Shown piece by piece: positions 897-59,212 of a DNA stretch of 64,000 nucleotides (position 1 is its first letter; every line of letters begins with the position of its first letter). Position numbers and translations under genes: made by a program. Origin of the DNA: Rubripirellula sp. (GTDB lineage Bacteria > Planctomycetota > Planctomycetia > Pirellulales > Pirellulaceae); the NCBI GenBank assembly GCA_965216875.1, contig OZ244207.1:2848001-2912000 (forward strand), in the 5' to 3' direction. The notes under the pieces were generated by a model. It searched no databases, was not told the origin of the DNA, and worked only from the letters and a program-made list of their open reading frames with translations.

Positions 897-1596
897 CCAC
901 TGATCCGCATTCACAGAACACCAGCGTCCCCAGACGGAAACAACTTCCATCGAGTGTTCGATTCCGCGGGTCAGTGCCCAAACTTGTGAATCATGGAATG
1001 AGTTCCGGAAATATAGAACCACTAATCAGCACTCATCGAACACTGATCACACCAAGCGGGAAGGCACCTCATCAGTGTTCGATTCCTAGGATTAGTGTTC
1101 CCCAACACGATCCACGGTTTCAAAGAATTCATAATGAGATGCGCAGAGCGGTGCGATTCCGAAGATGTAAAGCCACTAATAAACACTCATCGAAAACTAA
1201 TCACGCCAAGCAAGAGAACCCCTCATTAGTCTTCCAAAACACGATCCACGGTTTCTAGGGCTTCGAAAAAGAGATGGCGTTGAGGGATGAGCTTTCGAAG
1301 ATGTGAAACCACTAATCAACACTCATCGAACACTGATCACGCCAAGCAGATGCACACCTCATCAGTGTTCGATTCCAGGGATTAGTGTTCCAAAACACGA
1401 TGCAAGGATTCAGGGGCTTCGAAAAAGAGATGGCGTCGAGGGACGAGCTTTCAAAGAAGTGAAACCACTAATCAGCACTTATCGAACGCTGATCCCACCA
1501 AGCAAGACCACGCCTCATTAGTGTTCGATTCCTAGGATTAGTGTTCCCAAACAAGCCCGGCTCACTTTCGTCATCTGCGTTCGACGGTTAGTCTTC
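897..1596 (+). repeat. Tandem array of hairpin-forming ~155-bp units (4 clear units, 1 degenerate unit, 1 degenerate right half)
   Basis: CCACT(A/G)AT unit starts at 897, 1019, 1173, 1309 and 1465. Core is CACTAATC..ATCGAACACTGAT-loop-ATCAGTGTTCGAT..GATTAGTG. Linkers CACGAT..GAGATG..GAAGATGT are also repeated. A degenerate right arm lies at 1571-1596. Confidence 0.95.
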
Positions 1597-1637
1597 AGGA
1601 ATCACCGTTCACTTCGCATCTACATCGGGGCAGAAAG

Positions 1638-2006
1638 ATGTTTAAACAGGAAGGTTACGAACTCATGGGGGCGGCTTTTGAAGTGTACAACGTCCTGGGA
1701 TTCGGTATGGCTGACGAGGTCTATCAACAAAGCCTTGAGTTCGAATTGGGATTGAGGAACATCCCGTTCGTCAGCAGAGGGGCGCTGAGGGTCAGTTACA
1801 AGAACCATGTCTTGAAAACGGTCTACCGGCCCGACTTGCTCGTACACGACGAGATCGTCGTCGAATTGAGAGCTGCCAAGACGATTGACTCGGAACATAA
1901 AGCCCAACTCTTCAACTACATGCGAGTCAGTGAGAAAAAGGTTGGGTACCTCATCAACTATGGCACGACCAAGGACCTCCAGTGGCAACGGTTCGTACTC
2001 ACGTAG
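1638..2006 (+). CDS. GxxExxY family protein (PD-(D/E)XK nuclease fold, PDDEXK_3-like)
   Basis: 122 aa with GAAFEVYNVLGFGMADEVYQ, RPDLLV..IVVELRA, AQLFNYM and GYLINYG, all typical of the family. Confidence 0.92.
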   Translation: MFKQEGYELMGAAFEVYNVLGFGMADEVYQQSLEFELGLRNIPFVSRGALRVSYKNHVLKTVYRPDLLVHDEIVVELRAAKTIDSEHKAQLFNYMRVSEKKVGYLINYGTTKDLQWQRFVLT

Positions 2007-2060: not shown

Positions 2061-2909
2061 CTAGCTCGCGTCCTGATCGACGAGCGACTGTTGGAATGAT
2101 TTCCAGAACGAGCGATCCTTCTGGTATCGGAGTGGATCGATCTGGTTCTTGAAGTAGTCGAGATGTTCAATCCAATCCTTCGTCACTTGCACGTACGAAT
2201 AGTCGCTAGCCGCCATGGGATTGACGAAGTCGGGGCTTCCGGGCTCAGTCGTGCTGACGTAGCGTCCTTCGGCATCGACTTGAATGTTGGCCAACATCAC
2301 GGGCAGCTTCATCTGCAGCTCATAGATCATCCGTTCTCGAAGCGGCATCCCATCGGTCGCTTCGTCCCACGCCATCACCACCTCGCGCGGTGTCGTGCTG
2401 TCAGGAAACCGCAGTCCGTAGGCCTGCCCCGATTGTGTTAGGCCATCGTGGTTGATGTCGACTTGAGCAGCCATCGGAAGCAACAGGTTTAACGCACCTT
2501 CCTCGGAAAGCGAGTCAACTTGGATCGGGTCAGCAAGCCAATTTGCGTTTTGGACGACCTGCAATTCACTCGAGCTGAGTGAGCCAAGGAACGCTTTCGG
2601 ATCAACGTAGCCGCCTTCGCTGTAGGCTCGTCCAAGGAGTGAGCCGTAGGTCTGGCCGAGATCGTGTGGCGCTTCAGCGCTGGCGTAGCGACCGCCCAGC
2701 CTCTCGATTTGGTACCAGCTGTTCCATGAACTCTGAACAAGCTGGTCAAGTGGTTCGTTCGATTCAATGGACTCGGCTGATTCGAATCCGCTGCGACCGA
2801 CGTTCTCCAAGACCTCCGCAAAGACACCTTGGAGGTTTCGGTCCTCGTTTCTCCGCCGCTGCTCGATCGTCAAACCGCTCGTAGCCGAAGCGTCAACTCG
2901 CATGCCCAT
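2061..2909 (-). CDS. Conserved hypothetical protein with a DxNxDG (Ca-binding-like) motif
   Basis: 282-aa ORF with an upstream GGGGGA RBS-like sequence; LADPIQVDSLSEEGALNLL..VDINHDGL. Confidence 0.75.
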   Translation of the reverse strand: MGMRVDASATSGLTIEQRRRNEDRNLQGVFAEVLENVGRSGFESAESIESNEPLDQLVQSSWNSWYQIERLGGRYASAEAPHDLGQTYGSLLGRAYSEGGYVDPKAFLGSLSSSELQVVQNANWLADPIQVDSLSEEGALNLLLPMAAQVDINHDGLTQSGQAYGLRFPDSTTPREVVMAWDEATDGMPLRERMIYELQMKLPVMLANIQVDAEGRYVSTTEPGSPDFVNPMAASDYSYVQVTKDWIEHLDYFKNQIDPLRYQKDRSFWKSFQQSLVDQDAS

Positions 2910-42819: not shown

Positions 42820-42931
42820 ACACTCTCCCTTGGGAGAGTCGGGCTCTAAGGCCCGGAGAGGGTTTGTTTTAAAAGGATCATTCCCTCCCCGGACTTTGCG
42901 TCCGACCCTCCCGCAAGCGGGAGGGTGATTG
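42820..42931. repeat. Composite multi-hairpin REP/MITE-like element, family C, copy 1
   Basis: ACTCTCCC-TT-GGGAGAGT, CGGGC..GCCCG, CGGAC..GTCCG and ACCCTCCCGC-AA-GCGGGAGGGT; near-identical copy at 59103. Confidence 0.9.
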
Positions 42932-59102: not shown

Positions 59103-59212
59103 ACACTCTCCCTTGGGAGTCGGGCTCTAAGGCCCGGAGAGGGCCTGTTTGGAAACGCGCATTCCCTCCCCGGACTTTGCGTCCGCCCCACCCGCAAGCG
59201 GGAGGGTGATTG
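59103..59212. repeat. Composite multi-hairpin REP/MITE-like element, family C, copy 2
   Basis: Near-identical to 42820-42931 apart from a 2-nt deletion, a few substitutions and a variable centre; between convergent genes. Confidence 0.9.

Follow-up and report, generated by a model that had tools for sequence, protein, structure and literature searches.

Organization of the locus

The window, by which we mean the whole 64,000-nucleotide stretch that was analysed, lies on G000:C1 at 2848001-2912000, G000 being the genome of the Rubripirellula sp. from which it was taken. Its first 870 nucleotides hold, on the forward strand, the 3' end of a host gene with domain matches of the Ig/cadherin-like and dockerin types, and 27 nt past the stop codon begins a tandem array of units built from short facing elements, here called arms. 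The array lies within a 767-bp intergenic stretch (871-1637) that ends at a GxxExxY gene (PF13366, TIGR04256; 1638-2006, forward strand), which encodes a 122-aa protein with no cysteines and a predicted RecB/Cas4-like PD-(D/E)XK fold. The spacer that follows (2007-2060) is where relatives carry a downstream arm; an intact arm is absent here, the best candidate lying at 2008 (p ~0.007). Beyond the spacer is a convergent gene (2061-2909, reverse strand) whose 282-aa product belongs to no Pfam or NCBIfam family and has homologues at 45-51% identity in four of 40 relatives. The stretch 700-2300 is identical in one public run, which may be the source of the same assembly.

The five tandem units given in a preliminary description of this DNA, with starts at 897, 1019, 1173, 1309 and 1465, were found again with the same spacings. 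Each full unit had been portrayed as a nested hairpin of about 79 nt, a portrait that fits units 2, 4 and 5 (79-nt hairpins with a 23-nt loop; single-stranded DNA fold z -4.5, -3.5 and -2.2), fits unit 1 loosely and fails for unit 3. Unit 2 consists of a forward arm (1016-1047, forward strand, 36.8 bits) with words at 1020, 1030 and 1041, in steps of 10 and 11 bp, a 23-nt loop (1048-1070) similar to those of units 3-5 and of two distant genome sites, and a reverse arm (1071-1101, reverse strand, 10.2 bits) with a decayed middle word. The same order of forward arm, loop and reverse arm is evident from fold and arm scan in units 4 (1306-1391) and 5 (1462-1547). Unit 1 (894-980; fold, unit alignment and arm scan), with a diverged forward arm, a loop and a reverse arm, is a diverged copy of 80 nt (z -2.7), and unit 3 (1170-1235) is unfolded (z -0.3), retaining forward arm and loop but having lost 20 nt of its reverse (3') arm between two repeated words. 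Only in units 2 and 4 do all 13 bp of the inner stem pair, and the linker of about 75 nt shrinks to about 40 nt after unit 1. Sequence comparison indicates that the linker after unit 2 (1102-1169) was co-duplicated with the unit, and GxxExxY gene remnants were undetectable in it and in the window linkers generally (z ~1 and 0; nhmmer). The internal loop previously taken as a feature of the unit is a local defect that arose because the middle word of the 3' arm decayed in this sub-family; at related loci all three words are kept in 192 of 250 arms. The half unit placed at 1571-1596 proved to be a weak match to a 3' arm (1571-1597, reverse strand; p ~0.0015 against 200,000 random genome positions), a decayed reverse arm at the site of the gene-proximal arm of relatives, which ends about 41 nt before the ATG as compared with a median of 33.5 nt in those relatives. 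Elsewhere in the window a 96-nt two-copy repeat (42836-42931 and 59117-59212; 91% identical, with internal palindromes) resembles a further family of the REP type.

The GxxExxY protein and the state of the window copy

The family assignment made in the preliminary description is secure, with 124 bits to PF13366 (cut-off 22) and 122 bits to TIGR04256 (cut-off 35), and the nearest named homologues are from Pirellulaceae. The structure is predicted with confidence (pLDDT 96). Foldseek places Cas4 SSO0001 (E 5e-5) and lambda exonuclease (E 3e-4) at the top, with MGME1 among the top fold matches, and VIA-align returns PD-(D/E)XK proteins with a middling score (Z up to 7.8, rmsd 3.5, 98 aligned residues); since the best Z is only 7.8, the activity is not fixed by the fold match. 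Cas4, lambda exonuclease and MGME1 work on DNA ends or single strands. Cas4 profiles match weakly (E 0.0003-0.005), and a search by sequence for a solved structure and a search of the Atlas returned, respectively, none and no usable match outside PF13366. A homodimer prediction scored under the mark, which counts neither for nor against a dimer. The residues E, PD, ExK and QxxxY, which we take to be the PD-(D/E)XK motifs, are conserved across the family, and a median dN/dS of 0.13 in 43 close pairs shows the family to be under purifying selection. The likeness to RecB, Cas4 and lambda-exonuclease nucleases is thus one of predicted fold and of these residues. Cas4 carries the four cysteines of an iron-sulfur cluster; the GxxExxY protein has no cysteines, and therefore no such cluster, is half the size of Cas4 and has no cas genes found with it. 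A PDDEXK_3 member is present in 28 of 41 related genomes, and there are six in G000. PDDEXK_3 is listed as of 'Unknown' function with multiple transfers (PMC3424549), and the GxxExxY family appears as a mere annotation (10.1101/2021.01.26.428298; PMC12085832).

The preliminary description was silent on the state of this particular copy, in which two otherwise invariant residues are changed and intact GxxExxY and ExK motifs were not found. Position 26 (1713-1715) is D in place of the E of GxxExxY, kept in 119 of 119 homologues, and position 78 (1869-1871) is R in place of the K of the ExK catalytic motif, kept in 118 of 119; both E and K are retained at 34 of 34 other genome loci. Overall the window copy departs from eight of 68 near-invariant columns, the 119 homologues mostly from none to two and at most from seven. 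In PD-(D/E)XK enzymes generally, loss of these E and K residues would be expected to impair catalysis. Judged by E26D, K78R, the decayed proximal arm and the lost downstream arm, the window gene is likely impaired, and the array beside it is therefore likely a relic. For the same reason the window locus is a poor test object.

The three-word arm as conserved unit

The unit conserved across loci is the arm, with its phased words, and not the nested hairpin. An arm is 31 bp long and carries three words C[A/G]CT[A/G]AT spaced 10, rarely 11, bp apart; the 5' arms of the window have three C[A/G]CTNAT words at steps of 10 and 11 bp, and the 3' arm is the same reversed. A profile of 178 arms reads GGAA, then three times C-R-C-T-R-A-T-Y plus two free bases; it thus has a GGAA end and non-palindromic words, and no short palindrome tagged with GTAG or CGTC. 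Across 76 distinct clade loci (89 clade loci minus 13 near-duplicates), 428 of 452 word gaps were 10 or 11, with gaps of 7-24 permitted. Such constancy of word sequence and phase is what binding sites for a protein would be expected to show.

Association of arms with GxxExxY genes

That repeat and GxxExxY gene belong together, as had been proposed, was borne out by enrichment in gene flanks. For this comparison the clade comprised GxxExxY genes of at least 50% identity and the other GxxExxY genes were those below 46%, an arm being counted if it had at least two words and lay within 300 nt of the gene; there were 133 loci, with one that had no tblastn match and one that was the window itself left out. 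Arms accompany 88 of 89 clade genes but one of 42 other GxxExxY genes, and among metagenome loci unseen when the pattern was written the figure is 79 of 80, against a background of 11 in 5,000 random 600-nt windows of G000 and one in 80 distal windows. Further genome loci had arms in 29 of 33 cases, two of the 33 being the same DNA as loci of the first set. The upstream tandem array taken as the defining form of the system is in fact a minority arrangement, with at least four arms on one side at only eight of 76 loci. Arms lie on both sides of the gene at 50 of 60 loci with sufficient flank, and the nearest ones mostly point away from it (upstream 52 of 64, downstream 50 of 69), although all four arm orientations occur and single unpaired arms are common.

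Other GxxExxY clades are accompanied by different words with periods of 8-10, among them four of the five G000 paralogues, and since periods of 8 or 9 are included, any argument from the helical turn is confined to the present clade. A quick tree was built from 97 of the 144 proteins, with 47 close clade members left out, and on it the word class goes with the branching of the proteins (23 changes, as against 60.8 when shuffled); the clade itself has SH-aLRT 97, and its 31 rows are from Planctomycetota, Lentisphaerota and metagenome contigs. This fit speaks for co-inheritance, not recognition, because related proteins have labels in common and the flanks are linked with the gene; linkage alone suffices to make gene-adjacent arms match the gene tree.

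The five further GxxExxY paralogues of the host genome lie at G000:C1 5381899, 1260443, 3247606, 5894699 and 1417289. Four have their own word arrays, of the CACGAAT, CGCAGAT, CGCARAG and CACAAGA types, and arms of the CACAAGA type are matched 84 times, at 36 sites. The fifth paralogue is longer and divergent and has no clear three-word arm. In G035 (L213-L221), a genome without the clade gene, composite palindromes between genes contain arms of the present family nested with the word arms that belong to other GxxExxY clades. Domains of a different GxxExxY clade also sit inside LepA-family (P0125, P0128, P0130, P0132, P0134, P0136) and RecG-family (P0129) proteins, and in three of these proteins the domain is in frame and bracketed by short peptide repeats that resemble translated word arms. 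Seen at the protein level, such in-frame domains would point clearly to cassettes having inserted into housekeeping genes.

Dispersed and gene-less copies

The preliminary description did not address where else in the genome the repeat occurs. G000 holds 39 arms of at least 15 bits at 19 sites, one of which is next to the gene, as compared with two arms in a reversed-genome control. By a rough check most of 15 such sites lie between long open reading frames, often just past a stop codon. The hairpin plus loop of the window array recurs at two distant G000 sites, so that hairpin units travel too. At two gene-less G000 sites, congeners had no arms near the shared gene, and the far neighbours were different or unresolved.

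The clade gene is patchily distributed, in 22 of 201 genomes of the family. At least five exact arms were counted by hand in 18 of 22 genomes with the clade gene and in 19 of 179 without it, G009, with a frameshifted clade gene, being scored as without; the Fisher odds of 38 for arm richness against gene presence are overstated, kin not being independent. Across the phylum (301 genomes), G000 and G322 alone had more than two arms, and they alone had a gene match of at least 189 bits. An intact clade gene is absent from 19 of the 37 arm-rich genomes of the family sample, about half. G013, G019, G020, G023 and G035 hold 9-71 arms with no clade gene even at E 0.01; 50 of these arms are in G020, a single contig, and 71 in G035. 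No clade member was found in the phage, plasmid and viral records searched, eight plasmid records having distant members only. Six viral contigs (L264-L269) carry exact three-word arms, and the clade gene was not found in that collection.

Possible mobility and rearrangement

Close copies of the gene stand amid unrelated neighbours: only six of 1,176 pairs among 49 long-flank loci share a neighbour gene, and where gene copies are 80-95% identical in DNA, their similarity often stops at or just beyond the proximal arms. An orthologous site could be followed in genus g19, where 12 of 27 examined genomes had both flanking genes. Four of the 12 alleles have gene and arms, one (G020) has an array of five mini-units, one (G357) has a single arm and six are arm-free, four of these last being a plain gap of 81-82 nt. 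The arm-free alleles come from more distant species, and the site therefore does not polarize gain against loss. Each G020 mini-unit consists of a reverse arm, the gene start fused to the gene end, and a forward arm, five in tandem, and the 'loops' between them are copies of the host left flank. An array can thus be a deletion derivative that was amplified where it stood, and a hairpin can result incidentally where outward-facing units lie in tandem. Derivatives with an internal deletion and both ends retained were found in G020, L001 and L029, and gene-end remnants at four of 69 loci. The L090 array copies adjacent DNA that includes the first codons of the gene. At one locus pair (G547:C4, L241 and L261), a recent local duplication has left two clade genes 3 kb apart with 98% identity, one of them interrupted by an internal stop. 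The g19 site keeps the gene in five genomes, from which it follows that the gene moves rarely. No consistent target-site duplication of 2-5 nt was seen at the presumed inner ends (27 loci) or outer ends (31 loci), and no empty site was found for the window locus, whose flanking genes are non-syntenic in two congeners.

These observations bear on an explanation in which a protein that is useful to the host, or autoregulatory, binds the words, and these are copied by host slippage and recombination with no need of a nuclease. The many arm-rich genomes that have no gene, the stability of the gene at one site in five genomes, the deletion between repeated words in unit 3 and the readiness of arrays to copy whatever DNA is adjacent, as in L090, are all as this explanation would have them. 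Slippage, however, yields tandem copies and not 19 separate sites; arms are enriched in genomes that have the gene; and the gene itself is patchy (22/201), sits among unrelated neighbours and keeps its catalytic residues at 34 of 34 other loci. We consider spread by host processes alone unlikely.

DNA or RNA: evidence from pairing

Pairing was assessed in 45 loci, each represented by one hairpin. Between facing arms there are 5.1 mismatches per 27-28 positions, G.T and A.C mismatches are equally frequent (67 each), and stems are equally stable in sense and antisense (-29.2 and -29.3 kcal/mol); over 59 hairpins the loop is 3-188 nt long. Arms that face each other resemble one another slightly more than arms of different loci do (linkers 47% as against 40%, p 0.002), and real stems are more stable than chimeras (p 0.0005), for which pairing could account. 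Yet arms of the same orientation within one locus, which cannot pair, are even more alike (66%, 40 loci), and the excess likeness of facing arms is therefore attributable to local copying.

The preliminary description had offered two readings of the array, the first of them a structured RNA with a guide- or antitoxin-like role. In its fuller form the array would be transcribed and processed into RNAs that guide or neutralize the nuclease, much as in type III toxin-antitoxin systems, in which a small nuclease gene is likewise preceded by tandem repeats (PMC3401426). The window array also lies downstream of a co-oriented gene with which it may be co-transcribed, and its units fold. Type III systems nevertheless differ from the present repeats, which are two-sided, inverted and dispersed, have no RNA pairing signature and adjoin a gene with no toxin-family match. 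The G.T count matches the A.C count on the sense strand, there are about five mismatches per stem, the two strands are equally stable, and loop length is free, the loops being neither conserved nor unique spacers. Of 60 loci, 50 have arms to either side of the gene, and both orientations occur; arrays are confined to eight of 76 loci, and in G020 the array has outlived the gene. An Rfam search of the array gave no match at E up to 1, and no sigma-70 promoter-like or terminator-like site was found in 800-2150, hence none between array and gene. Without a pairing signature, and with two-sided arms in both orientations, the RNA reading is not supported, and we hold it to be very improbable.

Another possibility retains the partnership of protein and repeat and makes the substrate a folded single strand, the protein processing single-stranded DNA hairpins or cruciforms much as RAYT processes REPs. 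Arms very often form inverted pairs, units 2, 4 and 5 fold well as single-stranded DNA, facing arms exceed chance likeness, a hairpin sub-family with a similar loop occurs at three distant G000 sites, and the top fold matches, Cas4 SSO0001, lambda exonuclease and MGME1, act on DNA ends or single strands. A folded substrate sits poorly, though, with about five mismatches per stem, with A.C as half of the transition mismatches and with loops of 3-188 nt; unpaired single arms are common, same-orientation arms are more alike than facing ones, and the G020 'loops' are duplicated host flank. It too appears improbable, and a double-stranded substrate, read as sequence, would better suit the arms.

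Comparison with known systems

CRISPR-Cas is ruled out, as the preliminary description had stated: no Cas1 match was found in G000 (99% complete), and linkers and loops are homologous between units, with no unique spacers.

The second of the two readings first offered, by analogy with REP/RAYT, was the right one, in that inverted arms follow the enzyme clade and gene-less copies are dispersed. REP, BIME and REPIN elements with their RAYTs ('REPtrons') are extragenic and, as here, form inverted pairs around a variable spacer (PMC2817692; PMC3733652; 10.1101/2021.07.10.451892). The same sources describe a cognate gene flanked by its own repeats, a repeat type that tracks the enzyme clade, dispersed gene-less copies and tandem mosaics with a copy number that goes with gene presence, and a gene that may stay long at one site, all of which find counterparts in the present loci. 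RAYT is an HUH/Y1 transposase, whereas the protein here is a PD-(D/E)XK protein of about 121 aa with matches to PF13366/TIGR04256 only, and REP is a GTAG- or CGTC-tagged short palindrome, whereas the arm is non-palindromic and made of three phased words. In the present system, moreover, pairing has no sign of selection, the genes around close copies are unrelated, and a gene-less unit can be what an internal deletion of the gene has left. The system works like REP/RAYT but falls outside it on enzyme and on repeat type.

Insertion sequences with their MITEs also have a gene between inverted ends and derivatives that have lost internal sequence but kept both ends, a likeness that extends to the deletion derivatives described above and not to the window linkers. 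They differ in having a DDE, HUH or serine transposase, none of which is present here; the presumed ends of the present loci have no consistent target duplication, arms stand in all four orientations, and a genome mostly has one copy of a given clade.

A selfish system with a candidate nuclease

We favour, with a probability of about 0.6 for the two parts taken jointly, a selfish REP/RAYT-like system in which a RecB/Cas4-fold nuclease, its activity predicted, would take the place of the HUH enzyme and read words on DNA, the window array being a tandem expansion of gene-less repeat units whose arms bracket the genes of one clade. In such a system the protein would bind the three phased words as DNA sequence and nick or cut near them, and repair between words or arms would copy, duplicate, delete and rarely relocate arms and gene. 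Repair of this kind could produce deletions such as that in unit 3, tandem amplification together with adjacent DNA, as in the window array and L090, and internal deletion of the gene, as in G020. It would then be the protein, and not host recombination, that drives the spread. A broader proposal, to which we give rather less than an even chance, is that GxxExxY genes represent the autonomous form of a mobile element whose class has yet to be described, and that a putative solo nuclease of RecB/Cas4 fold and about 120 residues reads three phased, clade-specific words and mobilizes both its own gene and gene-less miniatures. We know of no prokaryotic element that uses a solo PD-(D/E)XK enzyme in this way. 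A description of the link between gene and repeat was not found in the literature searched, most subscription journals and supplements lying outside it.

The arms give PDDEXK_3 a candidate substrate, a 31-bp sequence with a word that varies by protein clade, and because the word changes with the clade the function is directly testable with oligonucleotides. If the broader proposal is true, the family would amount to a naturally occurring collection of very small sequence-specific nucleases whose word code can be read. Should the protein drive the spread, a second enzyme chemistry would have arrived at the REP/RAYT way of life, and it would account for one class of the repeats that lie between genes in planctomycetes and other phyla.
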